From an uncultured Candidatus Saccharibacteria bacterium (lineage in GTDB: Bacteria > Patescibacteriota > Minisyncoccia > Phycocordibacterales > WO2-35-19), in assembly GCA_964589445.1 (NCBI GenBank), contig CAZPQX010000001.1:110098-174097 (forward strand): DNA of 64,000 nt, given 5' to 3'. A program made the position numbers and the translations under genes. Numbering within the stretch: the first letter of the stretch is position 1; each line of letters opens with the position of its first letter. The notes beneath the pieces were generated by a model. That model had not been told where the DNA came from. It ran no database searches and saw only the letters and a program-made list of their open reading frames with translations. Shown piece by piece: positions 28,501-35,970 of the stretch.

Positions 28501-31242
28501 CTAAAGAGAGTATTTTTTCATTACCAACTCTTCGATCTCTTGGCGAGGTCGACCATACTTTTCATAAGACAGATTTTTCAAATGTTCTACCATGAGAGTG
28601 TCGCCCTTTTGAGGCGGCAAAACTTCCATATTGAAAGGTTTGGCTGGTTTTCCATTTACCAAAAGTCTTAGGTAAGCGTTGCGATTGTCTATATTCATCA
28701 GGTCACTCGCGGCAAAAATCGGAGCAAATTGTTTTTCTAAATATTCACTGTCTTCTGCCCCGACACGGAAGGCACAAATGGAGCCGACATTGCCGAAAAC
28801 TGCGTCTCTTATACCCTCTTCTATTTGAGCTATAAATTGGTGAGCGATATTGAGTGAGAGTTTGTACTTCCTAGCTTCAGAGAGGATAGTGGAAATGGAG
28901 TCGGTGGTGATATTTTGGAATTCGTCGATATATAAATAGAAAGGTGGCTGATGGGAGCCGAGCGAGTCAGCTCTCGAAAGTGCAGCCATGAGTATCTTGC
29001 CTACCAATATAAGCCCGATGAGGTTGGCATTTATGTCCCCTAGCCTACCTTTAGAAAGATTTACTAGGAGGATTTTTTTGTTATCCATGATGTCGCGGAA
29101 ATTGAAAGAAGATTTTTCTTGAGCGATGACGGGTCGCATGATTTCGTTGGCGAGGAAGACATCAAACTTGTTGGTCACATATTGCACATAGTTGGCGAGA
29201 CCCTGCTCACCGCTAGTCTTTTCTGCATTTACCCAAAACTGTTTTACTAAAGGATTTTTACATTTAGAAACCTTATAATCTCTATAAGTTTTGTCAGAAA
29301 GCACGCGCGACATGTCGACGAGAGTGTTGCCTGAGGCTGGGTCTTCCATCACGAGGAGTGCTGAGTTCCTAAAATACTGCTCGAAGGCTGGACCCATCGA
29401 CTCTGGCACATTGCCATAAAGCTTCCTGAAAATACTAAAGAGTTCGTTGACTACAAAAGTTTTTTGTTCTGGGAATCTTTCGTCATATTCGAGCATGTTG
29501 AGAGCCATCGGCCTCTCTGTAAAGCCTGGGTCGAAATATATGACATCATCCATCCTTTCCTTTGGGACATTTGCGAGCACATCTTGGATATCAGAGCCAT
29601 GAGGGTCGATCATACAAACACCATTACCCATTTTTATATCTTGGATAATCATATTTTTGAGCAAAGTAGACTTACCTGTGCCAGTCTGGCCTATACAATA
29701 AAAGTGTCGTAAGCGATCGTCTTCGGACATCTTGATTTGAGTCTCTACACTCCTATGTTTGTTTACCCCAAGCACGATACCTTCACCTGAAATATCGAGA
29801 GGTGCCTGTGCAGTCGCGGCTCTCGACTGACGGAGGCCTTCAGAGACTTTGAGGGCGCTAGTTTGGAAGTGCATAAAAGAAGTAATCTCTCTTATGTTCA
29901 TGGGCAAAAAAGAATCCTGATCAAAAATCCTAAAACTAAAATTCTTTACCAAGTTTCTCAAATTGCCTTTTTCTGACTTATGCCACTTTAGGGAATTGCC
30001 GAGAGTATTGTTGAACTGATTGAAACTGGACTTGATACTCTCCAAGATTTCTTCTGCCTCTTCTTGGGTAGCGGATGAAGCGAGCACTCTCAGGTTGCAG
30101 CGTACTATGGGTGTGGTTATCTTCCTGCCTATTTCTTCAATTACAGTTTGGTCTATCGGCTCTGGCTTCTTTGGCTCTTCGCCCTCTTTCTCTTTTGGTT
30201 TGGAAGGTCCAAACATACCCTTGAGCGTGTGGAATACTTCGCCTCCTACACTATCAGGAATATCGAGCGCTTCGCTTAGTGGTGCGCCTGCCTTTATTTT
30301 ATCTAAAGCCTTCCTATATTTTTTGATATACCTATCCCCGACTGGCGACCAAAGTAGCTGTATGGCAGCTCCTTCACCATCGCGATTTACTTTTGAAAAA
30401 CCAGAAATAATAAGGTTGAGCGGGTCATGACTAAAGCTTTCATAAGTCTTGAGTGGATAGATTGGATTTTTCTCAAAGAGTGCATAGCTGGCTGCAGTGT
30501 GGCCTGTCTCGTTGAAGATATTGTAGTCGTCGTTTTTTTCTTCTATTTTTGCATTATGGAAAATCGAGAGAATAGACTTTTCAAAAAGACCCTTCCTAGA
30601 TAAAGGCACGGCCACATAAAAAACTACTTCCTTAGAAAAGTTGGAGTTGGCTATCTCGAGTGATATCCAATTTTCTTCACCTTCCTTTGAAACCGAGAGC
30701 ATGCTCGCATAAAACTGCTCCATGCCAGAAATAATTTCTTCCAGCTTTACGTTTTCCTTTCCTTCTTCTTCTTTTATCAAAACTTGGTACAAGACCATGT
30801 TCATAATCTTCCACATCTTCTCTTTTTCACTCACGCCGGGGATGGTGAAGCCCTCTCTTATGTACTCAGAAACAAAACGATGGAAGTCGTCTGTGATATG
30901 AAAGTTTGAAAGCTTCTCGACGGCAGAAAGAGCATTTTTGATACCCTTCTCTTTGGCGAGCTTCACGAGCTCACTCACCTGCTTGTCGTGACTCTCGGGA
31001 GATAGTTTGACTATGAAATTTTCAACCTCATCTTGTGAAGCGTGGAATTCTGGGTGCACCACTTCTTCTGACTTCACAGTTTTGTATTCGGCGAGTGTCT
31101 CTCGTGCTAGAAAAACCGGGTCTTTGTTTATACCCACCTGCTCTAGAGCTTTTTCTTTTTCGGCGACAAGCCCACGCAAATAAGAAACCTCCTCCTCTGG
31201 GTTTTTGAACGGGGCTTCGGGCATTTTAAATTTGTAGTCCAT
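28501..31242 (-). CDS. Soluble TraG/VirD4/TrwB-family (FtsK/HerA superfamily) P-loop ATPase, 913 aa
   Basis: Walker A FYCIGQTGTGKSTLLKNMI...CMIDPHGS; TraG-D_C-like Walker B region PFYLYIDEFQNITT...ARKYKLSLNIAHQFIAQ; no N-terminal TM helices. Confidence 0.65.
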   Translation of the reverse strand: MDYKFKMPEAPFKNPEEEVSYLRGLVAEKEKALEQVGINKDPVFLARETLAEYKTVKSEEVVHPEFHASQDEVENFIVKLSPESHDKQVSELVKLAKEKGIKNALSAVEKLSNFHITDDFHRFVSEYIREGFTIPGVSEKEKMWKIMNMVLYQVLIKEEEGKENVKLEEIISGMEQFYASMLSVSKEGEENWISLEIANSNFSKEVVFYVAVPLSRKGLFEKSILSIFHNAKIEEKNDDYNIFNETGHTAASYALFEKNPIYPLKTYESFSHDPLNLIISGFSKVNRDGEGAAIQLLWSPVGDRYIKKYRKALDKIKAGAPLSEALDIPDSVGGEVFHTLKGMFGPSKPKEKEGEEPKKPEPIDQTVIEEIGRKITTPIVRCNLRVLASSATQEEAEEILESIKSSFNQFNNTLGNSLKWHKSEKGNLRNLVKNFSFRIFDQDSFLPMNIREITSFMHFQTSALKVSEGLRQSRAATAQAPLDISGEGIVLGVNKHRSVETQIKMSEDDRLRHFYCIGQTGTGKSTLLKNMIIQDIKMGNGVCMIDPHGSDIQDVLANVPKERMDDVIYFDPGFTERPMALNMLEYDERFPEQKTFVVNELFSIFRKLYGNVPESMGPAFEQYFRNSALLVMEDPASGNTLVDMSRVLSDKTYRDYKVSKCKNPLVKQFWVNAEKTSGEQGLANYVQYVTNKFDVFLANEIMRPVIAQEKSSFNFRDIMDNKKILLVNLSKGRLGDINANLIGLILVGKILMAALSRADSLGSHQPPFYLYIDEFQNITTDSISTILSEARKYKLSLNIAHQFIAQIEEGIRDAVFGNVGSICAFRVGAEDSEYLEKQFAPIFAASDLMNIDNRNAYLRLLVNGKPAKPFNMEVLPPQKGDTLMVEHLKNLSYEKYGRPRQEIEELVMKKYSL

Positions 31243-31671: not shown

Positions 31672-31850
31672 GGCCCTATCGTAAACGGTTAGTCGCCTCC
31701 TCGGCGACCCGCCGAGGAGGCGGGGACGGAGCCTTCTCAAGACTTAAAGAGGGGTTGAATTGCGAAAGCTTGGAGCAATTCAAAGCCGGACTGAGCGGAG
31801 GCGAAGGAGGCGGGGTCGTGGAAATTTTTAGCAAAAAATTATCTGTGACC
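31672..31850 (+). pseudogene. tRNA-Glu-like unit 1, disrupted by GC-rich hairpin insertions in the D-loop and T-loop regions (probably non-functional)
   Basis: Starts ggccctatcgtaaacggttag, then a 31-nt perfect hairpin (cgcctcctcggcg accc gccgaggaggcg), then ggacggagccttctcaagactt (CUC anticodon loop) and a disrupted T arm; no matching 3' acceptor strand. Confidence 0.3.
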
Positions 31851-31887
31851 GATTCCCAAATCGAACGTTGTGTAGTAAAAATATATG

Positions 31888-32050
31888 GCCCTATCGTCTA
31901 ACGGTTAGGACGGAGCCTTCGAGAGGTGAGGTTGGGATATGGGACCCAACCGCAAGACCTTTTGAGAATTTTTATGAGTAGAACGAAATAAAAAGCCCAA
32001 AAGGTGTACAGCGACTGTAAGTCGGAAAATTCGGGTTCGATACAATTAAA
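31888..32050 (+). pseudogene. tRNA-Glu-like unit 2: first 33 nt identical in register to the intact tRNA (through U33), then about 115 nt of unrelated GC-rich sequence and a T-arm remnant
   Basis: ggccctatcgtctaacggttaggacggagcctt | cgagaggtgaggttggg... ttcgggttcgatac; no 3' acceptor complement. Confidence 0.3.
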
Positions 32051-32054
32051 TAAT

Positions 32055-32126
32055 GGCCTCATCGTCTAACGGTTAGGACGGAGCCTTCTCAAGGCTTAAA
32101 TCGGGGTTCGATTCCCCGTGAGGTCA
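32055..32126 (+). tRNA. tRNA-Glu (anticodon CUC), 72 nt, CCA not encoded
   Basis: Cloverleaf by hand: acceptor ggcctca/tgaggtc (one G-U), D stem gtct/ggac, anticodon stem gagcc/ggctt with loop ttCTCaa, T arm cgggg-ttcgatt-ccccg. Confidence 0.75.
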
Positions 32127-32160
32127 CATTCAACAGCTAGCACGAGAAGCGTGCGAAATA

Positions 32161-32859
32161 ATGCTTCTTTACTGCCGAAGTTTTGTACATAATTACATTA
32201 TGAAGGAACACTTTGACAAAAATAAACGCCAGATATTGATGACAATTACACATCTGAATCGTTTTCATCTGCGCGCAGTAAGAAAAGATACTAAAGTAAG
32301 TGAAATTAGTTTAGATAATATTTTTGCAAAAATTATTATAGGGCTCTGGGTATCTCTATTAGAGGTTGAGTATGAATTATTAAACAGTAAAGTTGGATTA
32401 AAAAAAGAAAAAGATTCTTTAAAAGATAAATATTTGAAATTGTTAGATAGATTGTTTCAAGAAAAGTATTTAAATAATAGCGGAAAAGATATTAACCAAA
32501 GGAATTTAGGTCACGATAGTTATCATCGTTACAAAACTCTTAATGACATTATAAATAATGAATTAGCTAATTATATTGAGATTAGAAATAAAATAGCTCA
32601 TGGTCAATGGCATGTTGCTTTTTCAGATTCCGGAAAGGTTAATAATGACATAACCGCACATGTATGGAAATTATCTAAAAAAGATCTCCTCATTCTGAAA
32701 ACACTTGTCATAAATATACCTGCAATTTTAAATATTCTTTTTCAAAGCAAGAAAACTTTTGAAAGAGATTTTAATAAAATAATAAATAAAGTCTTATTAT
32801 CAAAAGAAGATAATGAAATCAGGTTTGGCTGGCTAAAAAATAAAGCTAGGAAAATATGA
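32161..32859 (+). CDS. Rx4H (HEPN-type) motif protein A, Abi-like; possible start at 32200 (MKEHFDK)
   Basis: ...ELANYIEIRNKIAHGQWHV... contains R-N-K-I-A-H in an alpha-helical context, resembling the RNxxAH signature of Abi_2/AbiD-type HEPN proteins; AT-rich accessory DNA next to a tRNA. Confidence 0.5.
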   Translation: MLLYCRSFVHNYIMKEHFDKNKRQILMTITHLNRFHLRAVRKDTKVSEISLDNIFAKIIIGLWVSLLEVEYELLNSKVGLKKEKDSLKDKYLKLLDRLFQEKYLNNSGKDINQRNLGHDSYHRYKTLNDIINNELANYIEIRNKIAHGQWHVAFSDSGKVNNDITAHVWKLSKKDLLILKTLVINIPAILNILFQSKKTFERDFNKIINKVLLSKEDNEIRFGWLKNKARKI

Positions 32860-33515
32860 GCCTTCTAGAAAATAAACCCAATAGTAAAGAGGAAAAAGTT
32901 CTAGAACTTTTCTATAATAGATTTTACGATTTGTACGAGGAATTATATCAAGAGGAGTTTTTTAAGAGAGAAGAATCCTACAGATTCTATCGAATACGAG
33001 AAATCTTTTCTGTATACAAAGAACTACTAGGGTATGAACCAATCCAATACTATATTAAATATGTTAAAAATGGGGGTAGACCACCTCTTGAGGGTTTAAT
33101 TGTTGATGATCTTTTTAGTTTTGTAAGAAACCTACTTCTACACTTTCCAGTTTTTGATAAATGGGAAGATGTTTACATAAGTAAAGATTTAGCTACTTGG
33201 AATAAAGTAGGTACTATTCATAAGTTTCTATTAAAAAGCAGTAAAATAAAAATCGATGATAGTGGAGTTATAAAATATAGGATATGGGAAAAGAGCAAAA
33301 AGCTAATGACTTATATTCAATTCCACTTACCAGAAGAATACAACGATAGTAGAAAAATATTCCTTAAAGAGGTTATTTCTGAAACAGATGGTATCAAACT
33401 TTGCATATCTTTTATGAAGCAAGTTCTAGATACACAAGTTCATTCTAATACTGAGGAGGATATTGTAATAATGTCTCAAGTTTACATGCCAATTCCTGAA
33501 ACTAGAAATCCATAG
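32856..33515 (+). CDS. Rx4H (HEPN-type) motif protein B, translationally coupled to protein A (ATGA overlap)
   Basis: ...DLFSFVRNLLLHFPVFDKWE... contains R-N-L-L-L-H; 4-nt overlap with the upstream gene. Confidence 0.5.
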   Translation: MSLLENKPNSKEEKVLELFYNRFYDLYEELYQEEFFKREESYRFYRIREIFSVYKELLGYEPIQYYIKYVKNGGRPPLEGLIVDDLFSFVRNLLLHFPVFDKWEDVYISKDLATWNKVGTIHKFLLKSSKIKIDDSGVIKYRIWEKSKKLMTYIQFHLPEEYNDSRKIFLKEVISETDGIKLCISFMKQVLDTQVHSNTEEDIVIMSQVYMPIPETRNP

Positions 33516-33679
33516 TCGCACGGGAAGGGTCATTAGAAACTTAATAACGTTACTCAGAATAACCTTACTGGACAACAAATCAGACAGGTTCTATCTCGAG
33601 AAGGCTCACCTTTTAGAGAGCGCTCGGGAAGGATATGAAAATTGGAGACTTTTTTCATTAAAAATGTATAATTTATTAA

Positions 33680-34303
33680 ATGGAATTTGTCTATATAGGT
33701 TTTGGATGGCTACTGGGTCTTTTAGCCCCAGCAACCACAAAACGGATTGCGGATCATTATGAAAAACAGAATCTTGAAAAGATTATTCTTAATGACATAA
33801 AAGATTTAAAGAAAAGACTCGGGGGAATACCCTATCTTGTATACCCTAAGCACGGAAAATTAAATCAAGAGATTTTTAATTGGATTAAAAGTAATTCTAG
33901 TATTGACTTCGATACCGGATTAACGCAACTTGCTGAACAAGGATTAACTGAGACCCAGATAATAAATCATCTAAATACAATAGGACAACAAGATGTAACA
34001 ACAACATACTTTAAGAAAGTAAACCTTTTTGCGACAGACTCTCATCTTACTAAATTAAGTTTAATTGAAAATAATCTAATGGAGAAAATTTTAGAGATAA
34101 AATTCCATGTACAAGCACTAAATGAAGACATCGATAGTTTTAGGGATGATCTAAAAATGACGTTTATGCCAGGAATCACTCCACAAAATCATATAATAGT
34201 ATCGGTTGAAATTGATAAAAAGAGTTTAATGATTGCAAAAAAGTCTATGTTTATAGTTGATAAAATTAATGAAATTCTATTCTCTCGAAAAGGGTCGAAA
34301 TAA
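33680..34303 (+). CDS. Hypothetical membrane-anchored protein (1 N-terminal TM helix), third gene of the accessory island
   Basis: MEFVYIGFGWLLGLLAPATT... TM helix, then a soluble domain with no recognised family; TGTATAAT box at 33657-33664. Confidence 0.45.
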   Translation: MEFVYIGFGWLLGLLAPATTKRIADHYEKQNLEKIILNDIKDLKKRLGGIPYLVYPKHGKLNQEIFNWIKSNSSIDFDTGLTQLAEQGLTETQIINHLNTIGQQDVTTTYFKKVNLFATDSHLTKLSLIENNLMEKILEIKFHVQALNEDIDSFRDDLKMTFMPGITPQNHIIVSVEIDKKSLMIAKKSMFIVDKINEILFSRKGSK

Positions 34304-34465: not shown

Positions 34466-35035
34466 ATGAATACGACTAATAGAACACAACAGCTCTGCGA
34501 CGCCCTCAAACAAGGCGCACCCTGGGGTTCACTCGCAAGATTCCTCGACACGATCAATTTGATCGAAGAATTGGAACAATTGGCCCCTATACTCCATGGA
34601 TCAAATAAAGCGGATCTAGCCGAGTACTACAAGGAGAACCTCCTTCGGTGGCCTGACCCCCAATTGCCGGCAGGGTTCAGCGAGAAGTACCCCCTGTTCT
34701 CTGCACGGCTAGATACACCAGGAAAAATTCGCATTCTTTTGCGGGGTGCATACTACCGCGATGTCCCCCCAGAAATTATGGGCGATGTTTTCGAAGAGAT
34801 CATCCGCCGTCACGAGGTGGAAGGCGAGAGAAAAATCGTTTATCGCAACTACCGCAACACTACGCGCGATCGCGCTTTGCGAATCGTATACCACACCCAG
34901 CTCCCATACTGGACCCTGACGGAACTGGCCCTGAATGGAATGCCCAACGTCGGCATTTCTACCAAAGAAGGTCTCTTCCTCGATTGGAGAACAAAAGAGG
35001 AGAGACTCGCAGCCGGCGAAACCGTGTATTCATAG
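34466..35035 (+). CDS. Hypothetical protein (189 aa), high-GC islet
   Basis: Abrupt GC jump exactly at the start codon; terminator with the same 3' end (ggcggattttgtt) as the 8140 gene. Confidence 0.5.
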   Translation: MNTTNRTQQLCDALKQGAPWGSLARFLDTINLIEELEQLAPILHGSNKADLAEYYKENLLRWPDPQLPAGFSEKYPLFSARLDTPGKIRILLRGAYYRDVPPEIMGDVFEEIIRRHEVEGERKIVYRNYRNTTRDRALRIVYHTQLPYWTLTELALNGMPNVGISTKEGLFLDWRTKEERLAAGETVYS

Positions 35036-35682: not shown

Positions 35683-35970
35683 ATGGGGAAATTAGGAGTT
35701 GAGCCTCAGACCGAGGCCATGATCCTGGAGAACTTAGGTAAGTCTCTCCAGACACTTCGAGATGAAAATCCCGAAGCCACCTTCGACAAAGAATTGGTCG
35801 AGGCGATTTGCTTAGAGCGAGTGTTCCCTCATCAAGCAGCAGGCCTGCTTGGAATGACAGAAGACGCCTCGCTCGACTTGTTTTTTGGGCTGTTTCGCCA
35901 AGAGTCGTCGCGACAGGAGTTCTTCTCGTTCTACGTGGTGCGGTGGAAGCAGAAGCACCAAGAACACTAA
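35683..35970 (+). CDS. Hypothetical protein (95 aa), high-GC; N-terminus MGKLGVEPQTE similar to the 8140 gene (MGKSGVEPEGK)
   Basis: About 45 nt spanning RBS and start are conserved with 8100-8160 (aaaagaaagg....catcatgggaaaatcaggagt.ga.cc). Confidence 0.4.
   Translation: MGKLGVEPQTEAMILENLGKSLQTLRDENPEATFDKELVEAICLERVFPHQAAGLLGMTEDASLDLFFGLFRQESSRQEFFSFYVVRWKQKHQEH

Follow-up and report, generated by a model that had tools for sequence, protein, structure and literature searches.

A 2.2-kb AT-rich insert beside a tRNA-Glu gene of an uncultured Candidatus Saccharibacteria bacterium carries three open reading frames (ORFs) on the plus strand, which are designated ORF1, ORF2, and ORF3. It occupies positions 32161-34303 of a stretch of 64,000 nucleotides of contig CAZPQX010000001.1 (assembly GCA_964589445.1), which is called the window here and to which all coordinates refer. 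An initial annotation had described this islet as a candidate defence module composed of two coupled, paralogous HEPN proteins and a membrane protein. In the explanation that we favour with moderate confidence, the islet consists of independent genes for solo HEPN ribonucleases (RNases) of the abortive-infection or toxin type (ORF1 and ORF2) and an unrelated gene for a membrane-anchored helical protein (ORF3), which are stacked at an insertion hotspot at the 3′ flank of tRNA-Glu. The appearance of a three-gene module is an artefact of this stacking. The AT-rich block, its three ORFs, and the ATGA overlap of the first two were all found as annotated: the GC content of the islet is 29.9%, compared with a mean of 40.5% (standard deviation 2.6%) for all 2143-nt windows of the 64 kb, and the GC minimum of the whole window falls within the islet. 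ORF1, ORF2, and ORF3 are functional genes, because their dN/dS ratios of 0.09-0.22 (0.12-0.22 for ORF1) indicate purifying selection.

Independent occurrence of the three genes

The loci of ORF2 homologues were surveyed in one genome per species, covering 185,579 species, which yielded 57 loci, and a viral collection added three more. With family hidden Markov models, an ORF1- or ORF3-family gene was detected within 6 kb at none of these 60 other ORF2-family loci. When all neighbours within 3 kb of the 60 loci were clustered, synteny was confined to within lineages, and this neighbourhood survey, a check that the initial annotation had proposed, returned no conserved partner family for ORF2. 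A similar picture was obtained for ORF1, four distant relatives of which (P0031, P0029, P0016, and P0040) have no adjacent ORF2 relative (0/4 loci). P0031 is surrounded by metabolic genes, P0029 adjoins integrases, P0016 has a Phd/YefM antitoxin and a SIR2_2 gene nearby, and P0040 lies between a resolvase with RadC and a type IV secretion system coupling protein, with type I restriction-modification genes nearby. Relatives of ORF3 also stand alone elsewhere. Taken with the 60 ORF2 loci, these four ORF1 loci speak against the proposed coupled two-HEPN pair or three-gene module. The proposed paralogy of ORF1 and ORF2 had to be rejected as well: an hhalign comparison of the two families gave a probability of 3.6%, with only about 21 columns around the RNxxxH motif being aligned.

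The ORF1-ORF2 pair recurs only in close relatives with 73-93% identity. In locus L081, the two proteins are 93% and 93% identical to those of the window, the overlap is kept, and a different gene of 324 amino acids takes the place of ORF3, while in loci L082/L083 the identities are 73% and 75% and a 4-nt gap separates the genes. The synonymous divergences of ORF1 and ORF2 match (dS 0.14/0.16 and 1.40/1.47), which shows that within this lineage they have moved as a pair. The ORF2 homologue of locus L017 (82-84% identity), which directly follows tRNA-Glu, is closer to the window (dS 0.72) than the ORF2 of L082 and yet has no ORF1. These distributions bear on the possibility that ORF1 and ORF2 are obligate partners forming a heteromeric HEPN RNase with a composite site across the subunits, with ORF3 as its membrane component. 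Such an arrangement would agree with the ATGA overlap, with the presence of exactly one RNxxxH motif per protein, and with the pair having been kept at matching divergence in L081 and L082/L083, but we consider it rather unlikely in view of the lack of ORF1 and ORF3 relatives at the 60 other ORF2-family loci, the solo ORF1 relatives, the L017 locus, in which ORF2 is still under purifying selection in the absence of ORF1, the replacement of ORF3 in L081, and the lack of detectable homology between the ORF1 and ORF2 families.

In another conceivable arrangement, which follows the logic of HEPN-MNT (HepT-MntA), ORF1 and ORF2 would form a toxin-antitoxin-like pair with one HEPN toxin and one neutralizing protein. 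Neither protein, however, is a nucleotidyltransferase or matches any antitoxin family, the catalytic-type residues are invariant in both, both families mostly occur without the other, and no tandem-repeat array resembling a type III RNA antitoxin was found consistently across loci near ORF2 homologues. A pair of this kind is therefore quite improbable, even though the two genes are small, overlapping, and co-directional within a mobile islet and cognate neutralizers are common for HEPN toxins (Anantharaman et al. 2013, PMC3710099). The explanation by independent solo genes is followed in the next sections.

ORF1, a putative member of the HEPN superfamily

The likely start of ORF1 is the ATG at 32200, as indicated by its homologues and by an independent gene call in locus L001. 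The R-x4-H motifs previously noted in ORF1 and ORF2 were both found and are conserved well beyond chance (36 and 38 relatives, respectively). In ORF1, the motif is IEIRNKIAHGQWH with R142 and H147, its RNKIAH part being encoded at 32584-32601. A total of 55 homologues was identified, and in 36 aligned relatives the residues E68, R142, N143, H147, G148, Q149, and W150 are invariant, the last six corresponding to RNxxxHGQW and E68 representing the conserved acidic residue N-terminal to the motif. PF18735 (HEPN_RiboL-PSP) is matched by 7 of the 36 relatives, with P0027 reaching the best score (28.6 bits versus a gathering score of 28.4) and the others remaining below the cutoff; the alignment of P0027 with PF18735 spans the RNxxxH motif. 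ORF1 also matches phrog_12663 with an E value of 1.2e-11, the only PHROG match among the three proteins, and distant relatives are located on 14 viral contigs. In PDB sequences, nothing was found with the family profile.

Because of the invariant E68 and RNxxxHGQW residues, the relatives matching PF18735, and the match to phrog_12663, we conclude from sequence comparison that ORF1 is a putative stand-alone HEPN-superfamily protein of the AbiD-AbiF-related kind, which would constitute a distinct subfamily near RiboL-PSP-HEPN and, at the level of subfamilies, a new addition to a known family of HEPN proteins. Like RiboL-PSP-HEPN, the ORF1 family has an RNxxxH(G) motif and an upstream conserved glutamate. 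Unlike RiboL-PSP-HEPN, ORF1 is not fused to an L-PSP endoRNase domain, ParB is absent from the examined neighbourhoods of ORF1 relatives, the subfamily has the invariant HGQW extension, and the window protein lies below the detection level of the model. The initial annotation had been reminded of Abi_2/AbiD-type proteins by the motif; at E≤1, however, ORF1 matched neither Abi_2 in Pfam nor the Abi models or any other model of PADLOC, and its link to Abi_2/AbiD-AbiF is only an indirect one via RiboL-PSP-HEPN, which the HEPN survey of Anantharaman et al. (2013, PMC3710099) describes as a distant relative of AbiD/AbiF.

ORF2, a strongly conserved family with a likely HEPN-like core

ORF2 contains the motif FSFVRNLLLHFPV with R91 and H96 (RNLLLH, encoded at 33126-33143). 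Among 38 relatives, N92, H96, and E56 are invariant and R91 is conserved in at least 90%. At 90% identity, the family comprises 396 homologous clusters; a search of 1.84 billion proteins yielded 217 representatives at the 50% level. Its mean column identity is 60%. Intact copies with 52-84% identity to the window protein are spread across Patescibacteria, Bacteroidota, Campylobacterota, Bacillota, Actinomycetota, WOR-3, and a metagenome-assembled genome (MAG) of Nanoarchaeia. The intact homologue of this Candidatus Nanoarchaeia MAG (L020, contig JAQVLH010000128.1; 72% identity) implies either an inter-domain transfer or a mis-binned 4-kb contig. About 10 of the 57 genome loci are disrupted by frameshifts or stops (L055, L056, L065-L067, and L069-L073), and the family pairs very strong constraint with frequent inactivation.

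No match in Pfam, NCBIfam, PADLOC, or PHROG was obtained for ORF2, its 38 relatives, or 10 distant or longer relatives; the Pfam scan of these ten, which were taken from the 1.84 billion representatives, revealed no informative domain, and the family profile did not match any PDB sequence. Information on its possible function comes from an AlphaFold2 model (pLDDT 77), which consists of an N-terminal helical bundle, including a predicted HEPN-like four-helix core at about residues 10-95, and an alpha/beta C-terminal part. In this model, helix 77-95 bears the RNxxxH motif at its C-terminal end, and helix 40-58 contains E56. ORF2 appears HEPN-like because this placement fits the HEPN layout, in which helix 3 carries the catalytic motif at its end and helix 2 the acidic residue (PMC3710099). 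A Foldseek search of ORF2 against PDB gave nothing significant; the best structural neighbours of the helical core, which are below Foldseek significance against PDB, are HepT-type HEPN toxins (8xdj, 7ae2, 5yep, and 1wwp). As an internal control, the all-helical ORF3 model was searched likewise and had no HEPN match in the top 60. Judged from the model, a HEPN-like RNase core in ORF2 is likely but not established. ORF2 represents a family for which no profile model exists, and it would probably add a new architecture, a HEPN-like core joined to an unknown domain, to the class of solo HEPN defence proteins or toxins. The HEPN assignment made initially for both proteins is supported for ORF1 via the PF18735 matches of its relatives and for ORF2 by the expected structural position of the motif, but not by a profile match of ORF2 to HEPN; in the corresponding Pfam searches, the three window proteins themselves had no significant match, whereas relatives of ORF1 matched PF18735.

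ORF2 relatives are found in genomic contexts of the kind that is usual for mobile or defence cargo. In Sulfurimonas, the gene follows a CBASS-like operon and is accompanied by PycTM (Pycsar) and integrases, in Leadbetterella it adjoins a P2 Old-type nuclease together with PycTM and ArdC, in a Clostridium prophage (L006) it is located between replication and packaging genes, and elsewhere its neighbour encodes either a type I restriction enzyme or a Fic protein. The defence-type location assumed in the initial annotation is in line with these homologues in defence islands, prophages, and other mobile contexts. It is also conceivable that ORF1 alone is a HEPN RNase and that ORF2 is not a nuclease, its RNxxxH residues having a structural or ligand-binding role in a protein that serves mobile elements as an anti-defence factor, regulator, or exclusion factor. 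We regard this as improbable, since the motif at the end of a core helix and the invariant glutamate in the preceding long helix are HEPN-like, the neighbours are often defence genes, and the frequent pseudogenization fits a costly toxin-like gene, although the lack of a sequence-profile link to HEPN, the negative Foldseek result, the unusually high conservation across phyla, and the site among prophage replication and packaging genes in L006 all point in its direction.

ORF3, a probable membrane-anchored helical protein

For ORF3, 37 homologues were found. The N-terminal segment of the protein is moderately hydrophobic (Kyte-Doolittle 19-residue mean 1.36) and has a conserved GWLLGLL core, and the all-helical model (pLDDT 89) matches only generic or designed helical bundles. 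An Rx4-6H motif is absent, and no significant match was obtained in Pfam, NCBIfam, PADLOC, or PHROG. As had been annotated, ORF3 is probably a single-pass membrane protein without a recognisable domain, apparently composed of an N-terminal anchor and a helical bundle, but the anchor is of only moderate hydrophobicity. The homologues have GC contents of 32-35% within genomes of 49-50% GC. ORF3 is independent cargo, unrelated to ORF1 and ORF2, and forms a cassette of its own with its own promoter-like site.

The tRNA-Glu 3′ flank as insertion hotspot

The 3′ flank of tRNA-Glu, which had been pointed out as a location typical of defence islands, is an insertion hotspot with variable cargo in Patescibacteria. 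Homologues of ORF2 are located directly 3′ of tRNA-Glu in L017 (Saccharibacteria) and in L018 and L023 (both Paceibacterota), and homologues of ORF3 occupy the same position in L013 and L015, the ORF2 or ORF3 homologue sitting singly at this flank in these Patescibacteria MAGs. In both L015 and L018, PBP is followed by another gene (Mur ligase in L015, unannotated in L018) and then by tRNA-Glu, and behind this common upstream order the cargo differs, being ORF3 in L015 versus ORF2 in L018. Exact-pattern matches to the stretch that follows the tRNA gene (Table 1) were found on four metagenome contigs (L077-L080), in which unrelated genes follow; a 947-aa protein, proteins with DUF5677 and DUF4238, and an AMP-binding/KAS III/PPTase cluster are encoded by their cargo. 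What precedes this stretch in L079 and L082 is not the live tRNA but a degenerate tRNA 3′ fragment that has been displaced. The shared flanks, the differing cargo, the displaced tRNA fragments, and a repeat described below argue for repeated insertion at the tRNA 3′ end, by which older cargo is pushed downstream; ORF3 would have been inserted first and the ORF1-ORF2 unit later.

In L077 (Ga0172380_10015528), tRNA-Glu is followed by a DUF5677 protein, a DUF4238 protein, and two unknown genes. A single-gene antiphage system of DUF4238 proteins has been reported, but PADLOC gave no match for the cargo of L077. The same was true of the other cargo of the hotspot (L079, L081, and L023), and for this reason these genes cannot be called defence genes.

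The repeated adjacency to tRNA-Glu in Patescibacteria genomes might also be expected if ORF1, ORF2, and ORF3 were housekeeping RNA-processing factors tied to this tRNA, for example to its maturation or turnover. This explanation is close to refuted by the patchy occurrence (57 loci among 185,579 species genomes), the absence of tRNA genes near homologues outside Patescibacteria, the GC content foreign to the host, the different cargo at the same site in syntenic genomes, and the existence of pseudogenes.

The features of the tRNA-Glu region are listed in Table 1. The pseudo-tRNA copies mentioned in the initial annotation are real, although they are called by neither ARAGORN nor Rfam, and lie upstream of the intact gene, which is the one tRNA gene called in the window. 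In copy A, a direct repeat (D1, 31724-31761) is 87% identical to 32076-32113, and copy B shares 94% identity with the live gene over its 5′ half (31885-31920 versus 32053-32088). The insert of copy B sits in the anticodon loop region, both copies are truncated in the T-loop, and simple 3′-end integration would not lead one to expect their orientation, in which 5′ fragments precede the live gene.

Table 1 Features of the tRNA-Glu region and the islet in the window
Feature	Position	Strand	Description
Decayed tRNA-Glu copy A	31672-31761	+	D-arm, 31-nt GC-rich hairpin insert, anticodon arm to T-loop; T-loop truncation
Decayed tRNA-Glu copy B	31887-32041	+	5′ half, ~106-nt insert, T-arm fragment; repeats D2 and D17
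Intact tRNA-Glu, anticodon CTC	32055-32127	+	ARAGORN; Rfam RF00005, 60.7 bits; left boundary of the islet
Post-tRNA stretch ATTCAACAGCTAGCACGAGAAGC, ~23 nt	32128-32150	+	Alignment with L017, L018, and L023
ORF1	32161-32859 (longest ORF)	+	Likely start 32200, giving 219 aa
CATAAT -10-like box	32188-32193	+	Upstream of the ORF1 ATG
ORF2	32856-33515	+	219 aa; ATGA overlap with ORF1
Weak direct repeat of tRNA T-arm, 3′ end, and post-tRNA stretch	33585-33632	+	Between ORF2 and ORF3
TATAAT box	33667-33672	+	Upstream of ORF3
ORF3	33680-34303	+	207 aa

The post-tRNA stretch ATTCAACAGCTAGCACGAGAAGC is probably a recombination-site arm or an ancestral flank. Its core CAGCTAGCACGAG is kept across distant Patescibacteria lineages (L017, L018, L023, L077-L080, and L082), whatever gene follows, and could serve as an attachment-site arm, as a conserved trailer, or in some other way. 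The repeat between ORF2 and ORF3 is the best non-self ungapped match in the window on both strands (27/48 positions, the next best matches having 26, 26, and 25); its score is weak but its position is specific, and it is possibly an old junction separating two insertions, for which the sequence is suggestive at most. An analogous second copy with a 20/30 match is located between tRNA-Glu and the ORF3 homologue in L013. Moreover, an imperfect 28-nt inverted repeat (75% complementary) at 32851-32878 and 33587-33614 brackets ORF2; its right arm overlaps the weak tRNA-3′-like repeat and includes, as its reverse complement, the anticodon-stem sequence GAGCCTTCTC of tRNA-Glu. This inverted repeat may be due to chance.

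The ATG of ORF1, that of ORF3, and those of the ORF2 or ORF3 homologues in L017, L018, L023, and L013 are preceded by a -10-like hexamer (CATAAT or TATAAT) with its end 6-7 nt away, and no Shine-Dalgarno spacing is evident at any of these starts. The position of the box close to the ATG and the lack of evident Shine-Dalgarno spacing suggest leaderless mRNAs for the cassettes. Intrinsic terminators were not found within the islet.

The islet is flanked by core housekeeping genes. Upstream, genes for ribosomal proteins, SecY, Adk, UvrB, Tgt, and a lone VirD4-like ATPase are present, and downstream those for TspO, PBP2, RsmH, MraZ, LysRS, GreA, and a Mur ligase. The VirD4/TraD-like coupling ATPase (913 aa, 28501-31242, minus strand), which is encoded 0.8 kb upstream of the tRNA array, stands alone among the housekeeping genes and also matches the PADLOC model mad8 (3e-12); an 851-aa relative of it directly adjoins the ORF1 relative P0040 in L085. 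Just downstream of the islet, an ORF of 189 aa (34466-35035, plus strand), which is also present in L001, has a GC content of 52%, above the mean of the window, and no match in Pfam, NCBIfam, PADLOC, or PHROG.

The possibility has also been considered that the tRNA-Glu 3′ flank is a dedicated capture site for single-gene, integrase-less, apparently leaderless AT-rich cassettes and that ORF2 is at the same time a new solo HEPN RNase family with a universal target such as tRNA, a combination to which we attach a low probability. Decaying tRNA 3′-end fragments would then lie between the cassettes, and small genomes may sample defence genes in an integron-like manner. The extreme conservation of ORF2 across bacteria and the Nanoarchaeia (DPANN) MAG would, speculatively, reflect recognition of the universal target, which at the speculative extreme would be tRNA-Glu itself, linking target and insertion site.

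Comparison with known systems

The closest functional analogue of ORF1 and ORF2 appears to be HepS ("HEPN Solo"), an abortive-infection protein of less than 250 aa encoded by the Salmonella Gifsy-1 prophage, which forms an auto-inhibited tetramer that is opened by a phage tail-tip protein and then cuts tRNA anticodon loops (Nature 2026, PMC13043305). Like HepS, ORF1 and ORF2 are stand-alone proteins of less than 250 aa that contain one Rx4-6H motif (R100-H105 in HepS, R91-H96 in ORF2) and are encoded by accessory genes of mobile elements or prophages. The differences from HepS are that the ORF1 and ORF2 profiles have no detected similarity to any PDB chain, that HepS is not among the top fold matches, and that ORF2 has an extra alpha/beta C-terminal domain. 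With the HEPN-MNT systems (HepT-MntA, type II/VII toxin-antitoxin systems), the islet shares the overlapping gene pair and the structural proximity of HepT-type proteins to the ORF2 core, but a nucleotidyltransferase partner is missing, ORF1 and ORF2 have about 219 aa rather than the about 130-140 aa of HepT, and they mostly occur as single genes.

As in tRNA-targeted islands with classical attL/attR sites and in P2-P4 hotspots (Rousset et al. 2022, PMC9122126), a fixed site at a tRNA gene receives variable cargo, and the degenerate tRNA 3′ fragments between cargo units and the AT-rich, foreign composition also correspond to such islands (PMC9122126). In contrast to them, no recombinase is encoded in or beside the islet, and each unit comprises one gene of about 0.7-1.5 kb.

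Proposed function and significance

HEPN RNases form a composite active site from two Rx4-6H motifs across a dimer (PMC3710099). As ORF1 and ORF2 have one motif each and mostly occur alone, they most likely form separate homo-oligomers, and the composite RNase site would then be built from two RNxxxH motifs of the same protein. By analogy with HepS, the enzyme would be kept inactive until a phage or stress cue is received, with the C-terminal alpha/beta domain of ORF2 as a likely sensor, and after activation it would cut tRNA, mRNA, or rRNA, causing a growth stop in the manner of abortive infection or a toxin. In the lineage of the window, ORF1 and ORF2 are co-inherited and probably co-transcribed, although neither would need the other.

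Several points weigh against the explanation by independent solo HEPN RNase genes at an insertion hotspot. The ORF1 protein of the window itself has no match in Pfam, NCBIfam, or PADLOC at E≤1, PF18735 included, the identity of ORF2 across phyla (55-85%) is atypically high for a defence gene, and the nuclease activity, toxicity, and phage phenotype of both proteins are predicted by analogy. Some degree of functional coupling between ORF1 and ORF2 in their own lineage would be compatible with the ATGA overlap and with their congruent divergence. Regarding insertion, a scan that covered the islet ORFs, two further ORFs (34466-35035 and 35683-35970), the large ORFs of 17.8-31.2 kb, and the downstream gene calls of L001 revealed no integrase or recombinase. 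A close attR copy of the tRNA 3′ end was absent from the window at up to 3 mismatches, gapped local alignment for such a copy in the window did not rise above background, and the repeat at 33585-33632 (27/48) is too decayed to count as a statistically firm att repeat; the displaced fragments in L079, L082, and L013 are clearer.

Although not surprising in kind, the finding is well founded, testable, and of some value for the understanding of defence in small genomes; the hotspot with its single-gene, possibly leaderless cassettes in Patescibacteria is modestly novel. For annotation, it follows that neighbouring genes at such a hotspot should not be read as one system. The ORF2 family is experimentally accessible, because it is also present in named strains, namely of Campylobacter concisus, Paenibacillus (P. 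baekrokdamisoli KCTC 33723), Ruminiclostridium cellobioparum DSM 1351, and Robinsoniella peoriensis. If ORF1 and ORF2 are active solo HEPN RNases, the islet and the corresponding sites at tRNA-Glu in other Patescibacteria MAGs would represent a compact, single-gene form of immunity in very small genomes.

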